Source of the DNA: Escherichia phage vB_EcoM_PD328
Reading direction: 5' to 3' (one strand)
DNA: 59,156 bases
Sequence record: ON922918
The notes under the pieces are model-generated. The model was not told the origin of the DNA. It worked only from the letters and a program-made list of their open reading frames with translations, and searched no databases. Within the stretch, counting starts at the first letter, position 1. Each line of letters starts with the position of its first letter. Shown here piece after piece: positions 2,044-34,310 of the stretch. Both the position numbers and the translations under genes were made by a program.

Positions 2044-5000
2044 TAAGCAGCCCTCACAATATAGTTGAATGCAACGTTCTTGACAGTGTTTTCTGTGTTG
2101 CCAGTTGCGTTAACTGTAACACCGTGGCTGTGTGAACCTAAAGCGACTGTGTGACTATGAGCACCAATACCAACTGTATGGGTATGAGCACCAATACCAA
2201 CAGTATGTGCGTGAGCGCCTGCGCTTGCAGCAGTACCAGATATAGAGTGCGAATGTGCCCCAGAAGAAGAAGTTCCAAGCGTATTACCACCACCGGCGGA
2301 TCCTCTTATAGCACCAATACCAGGAGCGTTGTTACTTCCCGCATAAAGAGCGCTTGTGTGGCTGTGCGCACCGGCGGTGTTTGTGGAACCGCTCAAACTA
2401 TGCGTATGCGCACCAGTATTATTACTCGTTTTAGTACCGTAATCGAAACTACTTGTCCCTTTAGTACCGTAATCAAAGCTAGAAGTCGTTTTACTTCCAA
2501 GATCGACAGATGCAGTAGACGCAGTGTGGGTATGCGATTTCACACCATCCGCTTCTGTAGAAAGTACGTCACGACCGCTTGCAGGCTTACCTTTGATAGT
2601 TTGACCACGCATGTCTGGCAGTACGCCCGACGGGTATGCAGCAGCCAATTGAGGGTATGCAGCTTTGTCGAATTCCTGCCCTTGCATCACGATGTATCCG
2701 GACGGAGGTGTATCCGTAGGCCACGGTAATGGGACACCTACAGGTAAACTTTCAGCTACAGGAGGTGGGTTCTTTTTAGTGTAAATTTGATCCCAGCCTT
2801 CTTCGAAACCGTGACCATCACGCGATGTACGATACCAAAGACCGCCATTCCTATACGTAGCTCTTATCTGCAAAGAAGGTGTTGAGGAGACAGCATTTTG
2901 ATAGTAATGCACTACAAGGTCCGAGCTGCCCTTTCTCGCATGCTTATAGACACCAGATATAGCGTTCCATGGAACACTGTTATTGTCTATATCACCTCCT
3001 ACAGTAATAATACCTGTTTGTCCTAACGCAAACGCATTCACGTTTCTAGGTGGAATCGATATATCTCCACTACCATCAAAAAGCACATTAGCAATCCTAC
3101 GTGCTGTCTGTAGTTTGGTGGCAGTTGCAGCGTTACCAGTTGTGTTCTGATTACCCTGAATGTTGACGCCTGGAAGATTGACGTCAGCAGTACCGTCGAA
3201 TGAGGCGCCACCAATTTTACGCGCAGTTTGTAGCTTCGTAGCACTGGACGCGTTACCATTCACACCTTGACCGGCGTTCAATTTAGTGCCAATAGTGAAC
3301 TCACCAGTAGCGTTATCAATCATAAATGGTCTTAGATTGTTCCAACCACCGTATTGATCGCCTTTAGCAGTGAATAAAAGATATGTCTTGGTGCCGTCAT
3401 TGCGCCATAATGCACCGTAGTCCCCACCAATCATACGGACCTGATTTCCACCGCGAGCTACAATTTCATCATTAGCGTAGATTTTACGACCACTAATATC
3501 TACATCCGTGATGAGTGCGTGCGAACTATAAAACCCTTTACCATTCGAGAAATCAAGTATAGTATCGGCCTCAATACATTCTGTTTTAGGGTTTGTGGCG
3601 CCCCATTTGTAAGTTGATTGCCCGATAACATAATCGGCAGATGGTACAACAACAGATAAGCCTTCTTCTACATATACAGCAATAGGAAACGCTTCACCTT
3701 CAACATAGAACACAGAACACAGATCATCCGCTTTGTTACCCATCATGATAGAATGAATAGCACGCTCATTTGCGCTATATGCGTGAAACATCCCATAAGC
3801 ATATTTTCCTCTGTCAGTCCAACCACCGGGCATGACAAATCCGTTGAACTCGCAGTTGTTTAGTCTATGGTCTCCTGTTCTTGAACGTGTACTTATCGTC
3901 ACCCTAGATGCTAATTCATCAACGAATCCAGCAGAACGACGAATGACCACAGGATAAAACTTACCTGCTTCAACTCCTGCGGGAGCATTCACTGTCGAAA
4001 ACTTCATTCCCCGTTTAGCGGCCATATCAGTCTTGCTGGCAGCATTAATGTTACTTAGAAAGCGACCCTTGTCCGGTATATCTGCACCGTTCTGATTCTT
4101 CTGCAATGCACCGAGAGCTAAGTTAACAGTCTCGCGTAAACCAACGTTATCAATGAACAGTTGCTTATTAGGAATGTCAGCACCGTTCTGGTCTTTGGCC
4201 AACTTACTGTTAATAAGTGTGGTTATAGTCGTTGCAAAGTTTGGATCATCACCAAGAGCGTCAGCTAACTCTTTCAGAGTGTTTAACGCATCTGGTGCAT
4301 CACCAATCAGTGCGCTTATAATTTGGTGCACAAACTGAGTTGTGGCAATCTGATTGTTATTAACTTCAGGTGCTGGAGTTGGTGCCGTTGGTACACCAGT
4401 TAGAACAGGACTACTTAACGGAGCTTTAGTATTAGCAACGTCCATGACTGCTTTAACAGCTTTCGGTGTAGCTGCCAGGTTCTCGGCGGTGCTGTTAGTA
4501 TCATTGCTAAGACGAACGATACCTTTAGTAGTCAAGGACGCATCTTCAAGACCAATTGCATCAGCAATCTCTTCCGCACGTTCAGCAGCAGCTTCTGAAC
4601 GCAAGGCGGCAGACTCAGATCTTCCAGCTGATGTACCAGCATTAGTTTCTGACGCTTTAGCGTTGGTTTCGCTCGCTTTAGCTGCGGTAGCACTAGCGGC
4701 AGACTCACCGGCTTTGTTAGTCGCAGTCTGAGCGGAAGCTGCCGCATTAGTTTCAGACGTAGACGCTGAAGCTGCCTTCTGTGTTGCAACCGTCTCACTT
4801 GCCTTAGCTGCATTAGCTGCGGTCTGCGATTTACCAGCAGAAGTAGCGGACTCAACTGCACTTGCTTCGGATGCGGCCTTTGCTGCCTCAGCAGCTACTT
4901 TCGCCTGATTAGCAGTGGTTGCACTTGCAGACGCTTCTTTTGCTTTAGTATCAGCCAAAGTCGCATTATTAGCAGATGCAGTTTCTGATACTTTAGCATT

Positions 5001-27939: not shown

Positions 27940-28289
27940 ATTAAACGCCCATATATGTGATAAATTTTATAAGCAGTGGAAAGACCAATATTGAATTCTC
28001 TCGCTGCAACCTGAAATCTATTCTCTTTACCAGTGTAATTTCTGAGAAATTGATAAATTTCCTCTTTATCCATGTGTCTGTTTCGCACAAGTGTTGGCGA
28101 CCAAAGCCGGCGCATTTCGAGCGTAGCCGCGAATCTTCGCTTGATCTGAGCTACTGTACCAACGTACCAATACTTTGCCCCATTTTGCCCAATAGCCGCG
28201 TGGACGCACCGCGGCGTACCTGTTTTAGCGAACTTGCGCTTTGCAAATTCACACGCGAGTTCCGCATTGTCAAAACGTTGCAAGCCCAT
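27936..28289 (-). CDS. hypothetical protein (possible DNA-binding)
   Basis: 117 aa basic protein; C-terminal segment (GLSTAYKIYHIYG) could form a helix-turn-helix. Confidence 0.3.
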   Translation of the reverse strand: MGLQRFDNAELACEFAKRKFAKTGTPRCVHAAIGQNGAKYWYVGTVAQIKRRFAATLEMRRLWSPTLVRNRHMDKEEIYQFLRNYTGKENRFQVAAREFNIGLSTAYKIYHIYGRLI

Positions 28290-28733: not shown

Positions 28734-29071
28734 TAGAACACTTCCTTAAACAAATCAAATTTAACATGCTCGTAGATTTTATTCAGCTGAGTCAGCTTAC
28801 GAATAAATTCTTTACTGGTATTCTCGTCAATTGCACAGGTATCCGTCTGGATCTTCCATGTGTCGGAACGCAAGCGAAGCAGGAACGAACCGTTCGGGTA
28901 AACCGTCTTCGCTTCTGGCATATAGTGCAGAATACAGGATATCGTCCCTTCAGGTGGTATAAGAACAATATAAGTATCATTCACGTCGCTGTGACTAATA
29001 ATCCAACCGCTCTGCAACAAAGCATCCCGGAGCTGGCAATACATTTTCGGAATAACGATATCTTTGGCCAT
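28733..29071 (-). CDS. hypothetical protein
   Basis: 112 aa ORF, translationally coupled to neighbours. Confidence 0.3.
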   Translation of the reverse strand: MAKDIVIPKMYCQLRDALLQSGWIISHSDVNDTYIVLIPPEGTISCILHYMPEAKTVYPNGSFLLRLRSDTWKIQTDTCAIDENTSKEFIRKLTQLNKIYEHVKFDLFKEVF

Positions 29072-29436
29072 TATTGTACTTCCACAATTAATAATTCACC
29101 ATGACGTACACGAGCAAGTTCGTATAAATCTTGTTTCTGCGCAATGTCCAATTGGCAATCAAGGATTGCAATATCACAATGGAAGCCACTCGTACGAATG
29201 ACAGTGTCTTCATATGAGGCTTTGTGATAAGAAACCAAACGAATGTGGAAACGATCAAACTGTACTACGGACGACTCACGCGACAGTTGCACACAGCGAA
29301 CGAATTCAGGATCTTCACGCAACACTTCTTCGAGCTGGCGGCGATAATCATTATTCGGACACAAAGTAAAAGCGATGCGATCGTCTTTCAACTGTGGCCT
29401 CAACATAGACCAGGCTTTAACTATATTCTCGTTCAT
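29071..29436 (-). CDS. hypothetical protein (first gene of the minus-strand early operon)
   Basis: 121 aa ORF adjacent to the divergent control region. Confidence 0.3.
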   Translation of the reverse strand: MNENIVKAWSMLRPQLKDDRIAFTLCPNNDYRRQLEEVLREDPEFVRCVQLSRESSVVQFDRFHIRLVSYHKASYEDTVIRTSGFHCDIAILDCQLDIAQKQDLYELARVRHGELLIVEVQ

Positions 29437-29941
29437 ATAACCCCCTTTAACGTTAACGGAATAACTATAGCAGGATACGCAAGTTGATTAACATACGTGA
29501 TCGCAACAATTAATAACCACAGTTAGTCGTCTCGTGTGCTTTAATTCATGATGCCGCAAATCAGCTACGCATACCGGCAAACCGAATATTGTAATCGTCT
29601 CTCGAGTATTTACATACGGAACTAGCTTCATACGAACAATATAGGACAGGTGAGGTGGGGATACAAAGTGTCTAGTGACGAGATAATCTACAAACGATGA
29701 ATCCTTGGCAGAGATCTAAGAGCCGCCCCGCGGCGTTACTATAACGTCCCGTGATCGTCAGTGAGGTGATTGTTACGTCATGTGACTGTCGCGCGCTCTA
29801 TTGTAACGTTGTTTATTATTACACGCGTTATTATTTTTTATTTGATTAGTGTGCTATCTATCGCATGACTATATTATACCGTCCAGTATAATTACATCTG
29901 TTACTATCTACCTGCCCACTATGTGCTGTCTATGTATGTGC

Positions 29942-30008
29942 TACCTGGTATTTCCTGCGCGTGCTGTTACCTGGTATTTTCGACACGCTCGCGCTACCTG
30001 GTATTTCC
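29942..30008. repeat. three direct repeats of TACCTGGTATTTYC in the divergent intergenic region
   Basis: Copies at about 29942, 29968 and 29995 with 26-27 bp periodicity, each preceded by GTGCT. Confidence 0.6.
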
Positions 30009-30089
30009 GGCACACCGTCTACCGTATAGTCCCGGATGTTATTATTATGAAACACAACTAAAAAAGTTCTAAAATAATGCAGATAATAG

Positions 30090-30118
30090 TTGCATCTGAT
30101 ACCCTGCTGTCATATTAT
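30090..30118 (+). promoter_or_regulatory. sigma70-type early promoter (TTGCAT-17 bp-TATTAT)
   Basis: Near-consensus -35 and -10 hexamers with a 17-bp spacer, about 75 nt upstream of the first plus-strand gene. Confidence 0.55.
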
Positions 30119-30193
30119 AAACGCGTGGGGTAAAGGGGGTTTTCAAGCGGGACACGGGTTCCGCGCCCGCTTCACCCGAAGGGAGATTGCATT

Positions 30194-30499
30194 ATGTCCA
30201 TTATCTACTTACCGCGTTCTATGTCCCAGTCCATGATCACCAAACGTATTATCGGCAAGCGCCTGCACCAACTGGGCCTTACTGCGGAAAAGGTTAACGG
30301 GGATTGGGATTTCGACGAGTATCTGGTAATGCTCCCGGGCAACGAAAAATATTCCAGCACCGCGTTGTATATTCGCATTAACGAGGACGGCACTGTCAGC
30401 TCTTATAGCGTAATGTATGGTAGACCAGTATGTCAAGCGAATAGCCTTTGGTCTGTGTTCTGCTTTATTACAATGATAGCGAAAGCTATCCAACAATAA
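30194..30499 (+). CDS. hypothetical early protein (paralogue of the 32116 gene)
   Basis: 101 aa; shares SQSMITKRIIGKR with the 32116 protein (NQSMITRRIIGKR) and a conserved Y...DG.V...GR.V segment. Confidence 0.5.
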   Translation: MSIIYLPRSMSQSMITKRIIGKRLHQLGLTAEKVNGDWDFDEYLVMLPGNEKYSSTALYIRINEDGTVSSYSVMYGRPVCQANSLWSVFCFITMIAKAIQQ

Positions 30500-30575
30500 T
30501 AGCGTGCTAATGGTTGCCCATTGTTACAGTGGGCTCCCACTAGCAATCCGCTAGATCAACATGGAGATAATCACA

Positions 30576-31055
30576 ATGGTTACTATCACCCGCGTAGCAA
30601 AAGACGCTCGCTTTTTCACCAACATGTCTAACGCTCGCCGCGCCTTAAAAAAGGTTCTGGATGTAGACACTGCGACAGCTAATAGCTTTATTCACCAGGA
30701 ACCGCACGAGGACGGTGGCCGCTACTGGTTCAGCGAAAGCGCGGTTAATAAGGCAGCTAACGATCTGGTTGAAGCTGATAAAGCGACTGTCGTGGAAGTG
30801 ACCACACAACAAGCTCCAACCGCTCCCGTTAAAAGTAAAACGCGCAGCGAAACGCGCAACGGGGTCCGCCGGCCCATTAAAGGTAAATGCGCAGACGTTT
30901 GGAACGCTCTGGATAATATGTTGCCTAATGGTGTGCCAACTATTGGTAACGTCCGTGACCTTGCGAAAGCTAATGGTTGGAATATTAATAATGCAACGAT
31001 TGAATTCTACGCATGGCGTAAATTCCACGGGCTCAATAATAAAGGGGGTAACTAA
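30576..31055 (+). CDS. hypothetical protein
   Basis: 160 aa from the second ATG (GGAGA RBS); no recognised motif. Confidence 0.4.
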   Translation: MVTITRVAKDARFFTNMSNARRALKKVLDVDTATANSFIHQEPHEDGGRYWFSESAVNKAANDLVEADKATVVEVTTQQAPTAPVKSKTRSETRNGVRRPIKGKCADVWNALDNMLPNGVPTIGNVRDLAKANGWNINNATIEFYAWRKFHGLNNKGGN

Positions 31056-31133
31056 TTATGTTCTACTTATTAGCGTTCTTGGTATTCGGTGCTCCAATAG
31101 TTGCGGGTCTGTATTATACGGAGGGCAAATAAT

Positions 31134-31319
31134 ATGGAAACTATAGTTCTGAATTGCTGGGTTGACCTGGACGAACACGAATATTGCGTGAATATTAACA
31201 ACGGACCAGTCCCGGACGTGACTTTCGCATCCTATGACGAAATGGATGCGTATGTAAAAGGTTTCCGCGAGTGCGCTCGCATTGCAAATATTAACGTGAC
31301 TGTAATTTTACCGGAGTGA
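31134..31319 (+). CDS. hypothetical protein
   Basis: 61 aa from the ATG after a GAGG RBS. Confidence 0.3.
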   Translation: METIVLNCWVDLDEHEYCVNINNGPVPDVTFASYDEMDAYVKGFRECARIANINVTVILPE

Positions 31320-31324
31320 TTATC

Positions 31325-31591
31325 ATGCGTAAAGCTAACAAGAATTCTTTCGTTGAAATGGCTCGTGTTGTTCTCAACCGTCAGTCCTTCTACCTGTACC
31401 ACCGTCACGAATTTGATCTGTGGACTGAAGAGGAAACGTGCTGCCAGTACGAGATCCATACACGGAATGGTGTAATATTCACTTCCAGTAATTATCCGGA
31501 AGTTAAAGAATACTGGGACAAGCTGATCGCTGAAGCGTATGCTGAATTCCAGAAGCAAACTATTTACCCGATGGGCCTTCGCGCTGAGTAA
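31325..31591 (+). CDS. hypothetical protein
   Basis: 88 aa ORF, tightly packed. Confidence 0.35.
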   Translation: MRKANKNSFVEMARVVLNRQSFYLYHRHEFDLWTEEETCCQYEIHTRNGVIFTSSNYPEVKEYWDKLIAEAYAEFQKQTIYPMGLRAE

Positions 31592-31626
31592 TTATTAACG
31601 TCAACATAATTTAAGGAGTGACTATC

Positions 31627-31872
31627 ATGGCCCAAGCTATTATCACAAAATTCGTGAACCCAACTGCCGCTCGTGCTCCGCGCGTAAAAGCAACCGGCTG
31701 GAGCGGTTCTGTAACTATCACATGGCGTGACGATCTGGGCGTTTACGGCAACCACCGCGCAGCAGCGGAGGAGCTGATAAATAAGTTTAACGTTAAAGCG
31801 GGCGTTGAATTTGGGATCCTTGCTGGTGGTGAGCTCCCGGATCAAAGTGGTTACGCGTTTATCGTTCAATAA
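31627..31872 (+). CDS. hypothetical early protein (paralogue of the 32403 gene)
   Basis: 81 aa; AAGGAG RBS; shares a ...AAAEEL...N...ILAGGELPD pattern with the 32403 protein (AAAQELL...ILGVGTLPD). Confidence 0.45.
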   Translation: MAQAIITKFVNPTAARAPRVKATGWSGSVTITWRDDLGVYGNHRAAAEELINKFNVKAGVEFGILAGGELPDQSGYAFIVQ

Positions 31873-31882
31873 GGGGATAATC

Positions 31883-32047
31883 ATGGAACGCAACTATTTC
31901 CAGCTTATTTATCGCGGTCGTTGCTATCACATCCGCAACAAGTTTCGCAACCTGACCCGCGATCAACTTGAGTACGCTATTAATCTGGTTGGTGATGGTC
32001 ACTTCGCTACACTATCAGAAGCGTTAGAATATGTGTCCGCTGAGTGA
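31883..32047 (+). CDS. hypothetical small protein
   Basis: 54 aa from the ATG after an AAGGGG RBS. Confidence 0.3.
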   Translation: MERNYFQLIYRGRCYHIRNKFRNLTRDQLEYAINLVGDGHFATLSEALEYVSAE

Positions 32048-32115
32048 CATATACATTGCCCATAGTAACAGTGGGCAATAATATGCACTTCGCATAGTTA
32101 ACTGAGGAAACTATT

Positions 32116-32373
32116 ATGTCTACAATATTAAACCAGTCCATGATCACTCGTCGCATTATTGGAAAACGTATAGCTAATCTTGCGACTATCACCGCAGAGC
32201 TGGAAACTTTCGGTAATAACGCGCGCAAATATCGCGTCCGTTGCAATGGTCTTAACGTTTATTTAACAGTGTTCAACGACGGTAGAGTTCACGCGGAACT
32301 GCATACTATGGGCCGCCTGGTTGCAACCGCGTCCACGCTGGTGGGCTTCATCAACCTGTTAAAAAGCTGCTAA
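32116..32373 (+). CDS. hypothetical early protein (paralogue of the 30194 gene)
   Basis: 85 aa; N-terminal motif NQSMITRRIIGKR shared with the 30194 protein. Confidence 0.5.
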   Translation: MSTILNQSMITRRIIGKRIANLATITAELETFGNNARKYRVRCNGLNVYLTVFNDGRVHAELHTMGRLVATASTLVGFINLLKSC

Positions 32374-32402
32374 CTTTTAAAATTGTAACGGAGGTAAATA
32401 AT

Positions 32403-32651
32403 ATGAACGCTATCCATGTCAAAGCACTAGCACCGACTCAATCCAAAGGTATGCGCTTCAAAGCGGTCGGCCTCGGTATGTGCGCAGTAACTGCAAACGA
32501 CTACAACCTCAACGGTGAAGCGAACGCGGCTGCCGCTGCCCAGGAGTTACTGGACAACTACAATATGCAGAACCAGTCGCTTCAACTTAAAATACTTGGA
32601 GTTGGTACGCTTCCAGATAATACCTGGGCGGTACTATTAACCTGTAAATAA
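32403..32651 (+). CDS. hypothetical early protein (paralogue of the 31627 gene)
   Basis: 82 aa; conserved pattern shared with the 31627 protein. Confidence 0.45.
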   Translation: MNAIHVKALAPTQSKGMRFKAVGLGMCAVTANDYNLNGEANAAAAAQELLDNYNMQNQSLQLKILGVGTLPDNTWAVLLTCK

Positions 32652-33689
32652 CTTCTAACTGCATTATATAATCCGCGCCCTGTTGAAGTCCAACGGGGCG
32701 CTTTCGTTTTTGTACCCGCACCACCTCCCCGCGCTACCCTGCTGACCACATGTTACTCACCCATAACTCCACCATTCGCGCTCTAAGAGCGTAAACCCTT
32801 CCTCCGTATATTACCATTGACACAAATATAGTCGCCTTATACGCGCTTACAGCGATCCACTCCCTGCATCCCTGTACGCGATTTGGGGGCATTTTCACCC
32901 CTCGCTGCCACCCTTACACCGATCCAACCGCTTTATCGCGCTACGTGCCCCGTTTTCGCGGCTATTTTCGCTTTATGGGCGACCCGCTACACCGATCTCA
33001 GCCACCCAACCTCACCGAAAAGCCACCTTTCACCGAAAAATCCGGCATTTATACCATAAAATAGAATCGTTTTCGGGCTACAAAATTTCAAACTCAAAAA
33101 TCCGATTCGCTCCGAGAGTCACTTCAACAAAAATCGCTTGCAATCCAATTTTATTTTGTGTTAGACGCACGGGCACGCATTATGCGCAGGCGCCAGGCTC
33201 TGCCCTGTCTACTGACGAGCCAAATTTATAAAGTTCATAAATTCGTATATTTTCGCGTAATATACGAAATGAAAGGAGGTAAGTGCATGAAAAATAAGGT
33301 AAAAATGTGTATATGTGTGTATTTATATAAATTTTATAAAGATTTTTTGTTTTTTGAGTTGTCTACTGACGACCCTACGAGACCCCTTTATAAAATTTAT
33401 AAATTCACACGTTCCCCCCAACCCTCAAAATTTTCCCTTGTTTTTCATACACTTCGCTTCGCCGTTTCGTATATTGCTGGGTCTTTATAAATTGTGCATT
33501 TTTTCACCGATCTTTATAAATGTACAATTTCTCACCTTCAGACTGTTGTAATTTTTGCAAAAGCAAAAACTTTGCATATACAAAACACCGCAAAACATCA
33601 CAGTTGCAAATAGCAAAAACTTTGCATAAATTAAAACTTGGCAACTGAATTTCAAAATCAGTCGATTTATTATTATCAAGGGTGAGGTT
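32652..33689. repeat. about 1 kb non-coding repeat-rich region (candidate replication origin or regulatory/ncRNA locus)
   Basis: No credible ORF on either strand; GC-rich left part with repeated ACACCGATC and CACCGAAAA motifs; AT-rich right part with at least 7 copies of TTTATAAA-type palindromes and two copies of GCAAAAACTTTGCATA. Confidence 0.5.
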
Positions 33690-34310
33690 ATGCGCAATCG
33701 TAAAATTGAAATAACACACGCACACGTACAAGAAATGTTCGGTTACGACGAAGTGATGTACGCCAAAGCGGTAGCTATATTAGAGCAACATAATGATAGC
33801 CTAAGTAATGTGGTCAAAGCATGGAAGGAGGCTGGCCTCGTGTTGCGGCCGAATGCGGTCAAGACGCTGGACGACGGGCGGAAGTATATGTGCTGGTCGG
33901 CTCCGGTGTTGGGGATGATGTTCACTATCGACATCTACTTCGCATACTGGTTGTTAGAGGTGGATTGTGTGATTCCGCTCGACAAGTATATGCGCAGTAA
34001 AGGGTTCAATAGTTGCTTTGATGTTTGCTCTGACACGGAAGGTAACGGTGTTATGATCCTGGGCTTTAAGTGGGTGGATGATAAGTGTGAAATAAGGCCG
34101 CTGCGATATCCACGTGGTAAAGCGCGTCGTGCATATATCGAAGACGGTATTGTTCATTGGTGCAATGTAACGAAGCGTCGAATTAGCACTAACCACATTG
34201 CTCATATCAAAGAGTGCCTCGTTAGACTTCAGACGAATAATAGTGGTAATGTGCAGTTACAGAAAGAATTGCAAGAACTCATTGAGTACATTGATCAGTT
34301 CGGAGCGTGA
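33690..34310 (+). CDS. hypothetical protein
   Basis: 206 aa ORF, Cys-rich, no recognised motif. Confidence 0.45.
   Translation: MRNRKIEITHAHVQEMFGYDEVMYAKAVAILEQHNDSLSNVVKAWKEAGLVLRPNAVKTLDDGRKYMCWSAPVLGMMFTIDIYFAYWLLEVDCVIPLDKYMRSKGFNSCFDVCSDTEGNGVMILGFKWVDDKCEIRPLRYPRGKARRAYIEDGIVHWCNVTKRRISTNHIAHIKECLVRLQTNNSGNVQLQKELQELIEYIDQFGA

Follow-up and report, generated by a model that had tools for sequence, protein, structure and literature searches.

The control region between the early and late genes of a 9g-like coliphage: predicted virion DNA end, candidate divergent promoters and a variable repeat array

The locus studied here has a published counterpart in coliphage 9g, where a region with predicted Pl and Pr promoters was described together with the genome end (Kulikov et al. 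2014, PMC4276943). In the 9g assembly, 91 read starts were piled up at position 28,243, and the authors took this pile-up as the physical left end of a DNA with a terminal repeat, 473 bp from the first early gene (PMC4276943). They drew a parallel to the divergent switches of temperate phages; the size of the direct terminal repeat (DTR) was not determined in that paper, and a repeat family, its occurrence across genera and motifs flanking the boundary were not described (PMC4276943). The homologous locus of the phage analyzed here shares about 92% identity with that of 9g; the terminus base, the predicted promoter positions and the divergent arrangement of early and late blocks agree between the two, but a 95-aa ORF of 9g, 9g_00039, is missing from it. 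Coliphage T5 is a more distant point of comparison, with a DTR of about 10 kb that carries the pre-early genes. A T5-like terminal repeat size is also found in PMC6563267. Our locus resembles T5 in having a defined, non-permuted end and a DTR that holds promoters, small early genes and a terminator and is present at both DNA ends. It differs in the length of the DTR (about 3.5 kb versus 10 kb), in its unrelated terminase and virion genes, and in that nothing suggests a two-step DNA transfer and no nicks are known; the resemblance, drawn by analogy, is one of layout and not of membership. As in the lambda OR and P2/186 pR-pL regions, early and late-direction units diverge here from a short region with repeated sites. 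Unlike in those phages, there is no repressor or integrase gene, and the sites lie off the promoter hexamers and are dispensable in natural isolates. Short repeated motifs near a terminase cut also recall lambda cosB R and the pac sites of SPP1 and P1, but the CCTGGT repeats described below do not track the cut across genera.

We analyzed a stretch of 59,156 nucleotides from Escherichia phage vB_EcoM_PD328 (ON922918), hereafter the window, and in it the region 29437-30193, which sits between the late (leftward) and early (rightward) genome halves. The window is the genome of a phage of the genus Nonagvirus (9g-like, Queuovirinae). The best explanation of our results, probable when taken as a whole, is that the region is the meeting point of the genome terminus and divergent early and late promoters of a DTR-packaging siphovirus, and that its repeats are accessory regulator-binding sites. 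It is an ordinary, largely described control region, and most of the findings are already published; what is new here is a cross-genus, copy-number-variable repeat family and some of the motifs flanking the terminus, which are small additions. Nucleotide identity of the window to BRET, ESCO3, 9g and JenK1 is 91-94%. A segment of 1.1 kb around the region matched 17 phage records, all Nonagvirus, at 89-94% identity; these include BRET, ESCO3, 9g, JenK1/P1/P2, SE1, HdK1, HdSG1 and the BASEL phages ChristophMerian and FritzHoffmann. The region was aligned with 12 GenBank and 4 metagenomic relatives, and column counts are given over 17 sequences. Hallmarks of the genus are encoded in the plus-strand block (Gat-QueC, a radical-SAM QueE-like protein, an AEP primase-helicase, ligase, RNase H and dUTPase), a helicase domain being also among the replication and nucleotide-metabolism domains found in the genome, while portal, TerL, lysis and structural genes make up the minus-strand block. 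Since the proteins flanking the region (121 aa at 29071-29436 on the minus strand, with its ATG at 29436, and 101 aa on the plus strand, with its ATG at 30194) are confined to Nonagvirus, distant comparisons were anchored on TerL.

The region had been read from the sequence alone as non-coding, and this was borne out: it is bounded by the two ATGs at 29436 (minus strand) and 30194 (plus strand), and the ORFs inside it are not coding. In the 70-aa GTG ORF at 29849-30061, which is annotated in ChristophMerian, variable columns are distributed over the codon positions as 14/11/16, compared with 9/7/34 and 10/4/21 in the flanking genes; this ORF is frameshifted by a 53-nt deletion in the metagenomic relative L020 and destroyed in JenP1. 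A 32-aa ORF contains in-frame stops in JenK1 and L023, and a 47-aa ORF is not kept in relatives. Also probably spurious are the small ORFs annotated within the region in relatives, bas19_0078/0079 of ChristophMerian (L004 1173-1483) and AJT60556 of CAjan (L024 2827-3036), each overlapping the terminus block or the repeat array. A search of Rfam with E<=10 over 29300-30400 returned no match.

Next to the late block, the 5' leader and Shine-Dalgarno sequence (AAAGGGGGTTAT-ATG) of the 121-aa late-direction gene (29437-29495, minus strand) are nearly invariant in the 17 sequences, whatever lies upstream. The adjoining variable segment (29496-29600) appears in the alignment as an insertion hot spot that is empty in the window. 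A block of about 220 bp with the 95-aa minus-strand ORF 9g_00039 (no Pfam match) lies between about 29530 and 29577 in 12/17 sequences, and an HNH homing endonuclease gene occupies this place in HdK1; neither is present in the window, BRET, ESCO3, JenP1 or L018. Inserts at the hot spot have the coordinates L001 2723-3010 and L010 698-1177 in relatives. The 11-mer TAAAGGGGGTT is found as an inverted pair, at 29439-29449 (minus strand) and 30131-30141 (plus strand); the minus-strand copy is the Shine-Dalgarno sequence of the 121-aa late-direction gene, and the plus-strand copy is part of the early leader and is not followed by a start codon.

The dominant constrained element of the region, missed by the sequence-only reading, is the DNA terminus. 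Exact transfer from three relatives places the left physical end of the virion DNA, which is also the DTR boundary, between 29719 and 29720 (TCTAA followed by GAGCCGCCCC). The GenBank record of 9g keeps the coordinates of the paper, and its position 28,243 maps to 29720 in the window. Independently of these read starts, the records of HdSG1 and HdK1 (63.6 and 64.1 kb) contain exact terminal redundancies of 3363 and 3367 bp, respectively, and the inner DTR boundary of both falls on the same base as the 9g end (TCTAA followed by GAGCCGCCCCGCGG). The 9g read starts, the two DTRs and the alignment thus meet in a single block (29700-29776), in which all 40 columns of 29700-29739 are invariant in 17/17 sequences, as are 34 of the next 40; bins in the flanking coding sequence differ on average at about 10-19% of sequence-by-column cells. 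Over the alignment of 17 sequences this is the strongest constraint in the region, above that on the promoter and much above that on the repeats. In HdK1, where the HNH gene replaces the sequence left of the cut, divergence is complete until about 20 bp before the cut and gives way to identity thereafter. An invariant terminus target agrees with the conservation of TerL, which is at least 99% identical across all 17 Nonagvirus records; the TerL of CAjan (Seuratvirus) is 67% identical. Folding of the terminus block as single-strand DNA was no better than that of shuffles (z = -0.27). A cluster of palindromic GTTAC/GTAACG motifs had also been pointed out here. The motifs exist (CGTTAC at 29734, GTTACG at 29772, GTAACG at 29803), but their density does not exceed the genome background, three GTWAC within 80 bp occurring at four places in the genome, and they are conserved because they lie inside the invariant block.

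Boundaries transferred from HdSG1 and HdK1 give a DTR of about 3.67 kb, from 29720 to about 33394; the right boundary maps to about 33391-33394, where the two relatives differ by 3 nt. We predict that the virion DNA of this phage starts at 29720 and repeats 29720 to about 33394 at its right end. The terminase would cut concatemeric DNA between 29719 and 29720, and the segment would be present at both virion DNA ends. DTRs of other relatives measure 3695 bp (exact) in the Seuratvirus ECP2304, 3424 bp (exact) in the Seuratvirus yong3 and 1091 bp in Iggy, a more distant member of the Queuovirinae (PMC10484667). A literature search on the termini of Seuratvirus and CAjan yielded nothing usable.

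Motifs are found close to the boundaries. The first, CAGGTGAGGTGGGG (29647-29660, plus strand), lies about 60 bp (59 bp) outside the left cut and is a candidate terminase recognition element; in the Seuratviruses ECP2304 and yong3, (A/C)AGGTAGGTGGGGT is found 64-67 bp outside their own DTR boundary. GTGAGGTGR has three copies in the genome, two of which (29650 and 29761) flank the cut 111 bp apart, and in ECP2304 two copies of TAGGTGGGGTC, 113 bp apart, likewise flank the cut. The second motif, a 13-mer (TGTCTAGTGACGA, 29669-29681, plus strand), occurs only near the two DTR boundaries. As TGTCTASTGACGA, it has exactly three matches in 59 kb, all on the plus strand: at 29669, 39 bp before the left cut; at 33360, 22 bp before the right boundary; and at 33206, 154 bp upstream of 33360. 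In ECP2304, no equivalent of a 13-mer common to both boundaries was found. The invariant block 29700-29776, CAGGTGAGGTGGGG at 29647 and TGTCTAGTGACGA at 29669 are likely the recognition and cleavage signals of the terminase, and the motifs at 29647-29681 with the invariant block are better candidates for a cosB- or pac-type role than the CCTGGT repeats. The right DTR boundary lies within about 1 kb of non-coding DNA (32712-33690) rich in TTTATAAA-type repeats, in which 33206-33245 is a near-duplicate of the boundary context at 33360-33405, and two copies of AAAAACTTTGCATA (about 33565 and 33615) are found just before the next early operon.

The DTR is a self-contained early transcription unit, found at both DNA ends, in which promoters serve eight small ORFs closed by a terminator. 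Read rightward from the cut, it begins with the invariant block and continues with promoter-like sites, the array of three repeats, A+T-rich DNA, promoters with a conserved 70-nt leader, the eight small ORFs, an intrinsic terminator and about 680 bp of repeat-rich non-coding DNA. The terminator (32675-32711, plus strand), which closes the early operon inside the DTR, is also annotated in HdSG1 and HdK1. Two paralogous pairs are encoded in the operon (30194-32651), one of 101 aa and 85 aa (phrog_13865) and one of 84 aa and 82 aa (phrog_3199). Among the early genes of Seuratvirus there are weak homologues (about 28-53% identity) of the phrog_3199 family, of a 164-aa protein and of an 80-aa protein. 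Pfam and PHROGs searches with ten neighbouring small proteins revealed no DNA-binding protein. In the 9g record, 9g_00036 (window 31618-31872) is called a "TetR family transcription regulator". The AF2 model of this 84-aa protein (pLDDT 88) has a beta3-alpha-beta2 fold devoid of a helix-turn-helix, with no significant PDB match, and judging by this model the label looks unfounded.

Consensus matching over 29000-30700 returned eight promoter-like sites, versus 3.6 expected. One promoter had been singled out from the sequence alone, TTGCAT-17-TATTAT, 75 nt before the ATG at 30194. It is present at 30090-30118 (plus strand; candidate rightward promoter P_R2), but "near-consensus" overstates it, because only 8/12 consensus positions match, which is below the threshold of the scan. 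The pattern occurs only twice in the genome. JenP1 keeps both hexamers and the 17-nt spacing despite a changed spacer sequence and different upstream DNA, which supports P_R2 as a real promoter. A second candidate rightward promoter, P_R1 (ATGAAA-17-TAAAAT, 30047-30075, plus strand), was detected by consensus match and contains TTCTAAAATA, among the few strings common to Seuratvirus intergenic regions, where TTCACT-16-TAAAAT is readable. In the leftward, late direction, the candidate P_L is TAGACA-18-GATAGT (29932-29903, minus strand), also a consensus match; each of the five Seuratviruses examined has TAGACA-17-TACTAT in the corresponding position, ahead of its first late-direction gene. P_R2, P_R1 and P_L have comparative support from relatives, the promoter calls themselves being consensus matches. 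Two further sites are consensus matches only: ATGACT-16-TATAAT (10/12; 29865-29892, plus strand), which overlaps the BPROM "Pr" of the 9g record and whose -10 hexamer is mostly kept in relatives and damaged in SP8, and the weak TTTAGA-18-CATAAT (30044-30073, minus strand), which is the BPROM "Pl" of that record. The BPROM sites of the 9g record are equivalent to 29842-29876 (plus strand) and 30042-30073 (minus strand), and the sites at 29865-29892 and 30044-30073 would make the promoters face-to-face, not back-to-back. A literature search for transcription start data in Nonagvirus gave nothing usable. We infer which of the promoter-like sites fire as follows: host sigma-70 promoters would sit inside the DTR, one or two of them rightward (30047-30075, 30090-30118) and driving the leader and eight small early genes up to the terminator at 32675, and the leftward candidate (29932-29903) would read across the DTR boundary towards the late block.

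The 5' leader of the early operon (30124-30193, plus strand) forms a stable hairpin (AAGCGGG...CCCGCTT) followed by a GGGAG Shine-Dalgarno sequence before the ATG at 30194. Its folding energy is -32.3 kcal/mol (z = -2.5), and 35 of the 40 columns of 30140-30179 are invariant; variation is too low for covariation analysis, and the one frequent change, T>C at 30171, is uncompensated. In FritzHoffmann (L012 1912-2085), the first early gene differs, and the promoter and the structured leader are kept up to the Shine-Dalgarno sequence, so that the leader behaves as a unit independent of the downstream gene.

The three evenly spaced copies of TACCTGGTATTTYC that had been noticed are confirmed at exactly 29942, 29968 and 29995, with spacings of 26 and 27 bp. 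TACCWGGTA occurs only at these three places in 59 kb, where 0.38 occurrences are expected. Extended to their full length, the copies, all on the plus strand, are gctaCCTGGTatttcCTGCGC (29940-29960), gttaCCTGGTattttCGACAC (29966-29986) and gctaCCTGGTatttcCGGCACAC (29993-30015), the third being closest to the consensus. They form a bipartite motif, CCTGGT-N5-YCGGCRC, with half-sites one helical turn apart. Within Nonagvirus the core CTACCTGGTAT hardly varies, and drift is seen in the 3' part, around YCGGCRC. CAjan has CCTGGT-N5-YCGGCRC four times in its homologous divergent region, always oriented the same way with respect to the gene blocks; one of these copies is 19/19 identical to copy 3 of the window, in intergenic DNA that is otherwise unalignable. 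In the CAjan copies the N5 spacer varies (ATTTC, AGGCT, CAATT, CGATC) and the half-sites are kept, a signature of a selected bipartite binding site.

The repeats are conserved in related genomes: they are kept in 15/17 Nonagvirus sequences and recur in the sister genus Seuratvirus. Copy number is three in these 15, one in L020 and zero in JenP1; among Seuratviruses it is four in CAjan, three in SLUR25, one in SeppeHuegi and ECP2304, and zero in Skure and yong3. The single copy of L020 is a hybrid of copies 1 and 3, which indicates an inter-repeat deletion. In JenP1 (L011 1240-1790), a moron-like cassette replaces the segment equivalent to window 29925-30060, including the three repeats, and the motif was absent elsewhere in the 14.5 kb of JenP1 searched. 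This cassette brings a strong promoter-like site of its own along with hairpins, a 102-aa ORF that has no Pfam match and the same AAGGGGGTTTT Shine-Dalgarno sequence; an inverted repeat of 10 bp (TGTTGGATGC/GCATCCAACA) extends over the retained TTGCAT -35 hexamer in part or whole. In ECP2304, about 1 kb with three genes separates the array region from the DTR boundary, and the array region keeps its place between the divergent blocks; yong3, whose exact DTR was mapped, has no repeat. A scan of viral contigs with a degenerate two-copy pattern gave only scattered single chance matches and was not used. In CAjan, a stretch that covers the first late-direction gene of 87 aa (L024 about 3047-3312) is about 82% identical at the nucleotide level to ECML-117/Wifcevirus-type myoviruses, which suggests recent horizontal exchange between unrelated coliphage groups.

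The array thus travels with the divergent promoters and not with the terminus, and it is dispensable, which argues against an essential origin or packaging signal and favours accessory regulatory sites. We infer that the repeats are most likely accessory binding sites for a putative regulator, not required for replication or packaging. Located between back-to-back promoters, they would most likely be bound by a protein, of the phage or of the host, that adjusts early and/or late transcription. The proposal that this is an early regulatory switch stands insofar as the region is a divergent early/late control region, like Pl/Pr of 9g, with comparative support for the plus-strand promoter, but it differs from a repressor-operator system in two respects. 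The repeats (29940-30015) overlap no -35 or -10 hexamer, the nearest being 29927-29932 and 30047-30052, and no adjacent repressor gene was detected by Pfam and PHROGs among the ten flanking proteins. The spacing of 26-27 bp places adjacent sites on opposite helix faces, which is unusual for cooperative operators. Two more specific identities of the motif were considered and set aside. Every repeat contains CCTGG, but a Dcm/EcoRII target is not indicated, CCWGG not being avoided in the genome (112 observed versus 77-86 expected) and the palindromic TACCWGGTA core not being kept in Seuratvirus; a sigma-54 promoter would need its GG and GC elements 2 bp farther apart.

A wider reading, speculative and offered as a possibility, is that the array is a portable element of zero to four copies in E. 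coli Queuovirinae, bound by a conserved phage or host factor that sets the early/late balance and so tunes the "pseudolysogenic" carrier state of 9g, and that, separately, CAGGTRRGGTGGGG (about 60-67 bp outside the cut) and TGTCTASTGACGA may define a terminase signal of the subfamily.

The main rival to accessory regulatory sites is that the repeats have no function in themselves and are a neutral, unstable tandem duplication or what is left of a mobile cassette. The copy number of zero to four is what one would expect of such an element, and recombination between repeats would give exactly the deletion seen in L020. The cassette also lies on opposite sides of a shared TATGTATGTG string in the two genera, suggesting gain and loss by recombination. 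Yet between copies and between genera the half-sites CCTGGT and CGGCRC do not change, unlike the diverging spacer and flanks, and the 19/19 identity of one copy across genera stands in otherwise unalignable DNA, a pattern that indicates selection on a binding site and makes a neutral origin unlikely.

We consider it quite improbable that the repeats are iterons of a replication origin, bound by an initiator such as the 849-aa AEP primase-helicase, with the A+T-rich segment at about 30035-30090 melting. Three regularly spaced direct repeats do adjoin this segment, their motif is conserved across two genera, and the genome encodes a primase-helicase (AEP-type primase domain and DUF3987, a domain of unknown function); phage P4 alpha is an example of a primase-helicase that recognises repeats at an origin. 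The typical iteron spacing is about 22 bp, unlike the 26/27 bp found here, and no O/Rep/DnaA-type initiator was found, only the AEP primase-helicase being detected. Against an origin, natural isolates with no copy (JenP1, Skure, yong3) already argue for normal replication without the repeats, and a single copy is present in L020, SeppeHuegi and ECP2304. With isolates of zero or one copy and no iteron-type initiator gene detected, the earlier suggestion of iterons or a replication origin is not supported. The GC-skew check proposed for it does show a cumulative minimum at about 29-33 kb, but this is uninformative for an origin, since it coincides with the switch in coding strand and transcription direction.

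That the repeats are sites of the small terminase subunit, directing the cut between 29719 and 29720 as lambda cosB R or SPP1 pac would, is very unlikely: three repeated sites near a cut resemble cosB, and the repeats, all oriented alike, are 220-290 bp inward of the mapped end, but the array is about 1 kb and three genes from the DTR boundary in ECP2304, yong3 has an exact DTR and no repeat, JenP1 keeps the invariant terminus block without repeats, and constraint is much stronger at 29700-29776 than over the array.

These findings leave the general view of how phages work unchanged but have two practical consequences. This assembly, like others of Nonagvirus, is a circularly collapsed form; virion DNA proper would start at 29720 and measure about 62.8 kb, and records should be oriented and annotated accordingly. 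Several of the small ORFs that records of relatives show in this region are probably spurious. Phage collections and therapy cocktails make use of Queuovirinae, and a known packaging end, an early promoter block and a dispensable repeat cassette show where the genome can be engineered. If it is true that the repeat array controls the balance between early and late genes, it would offer a way to act on the stable carrier state that was reported in 9g.
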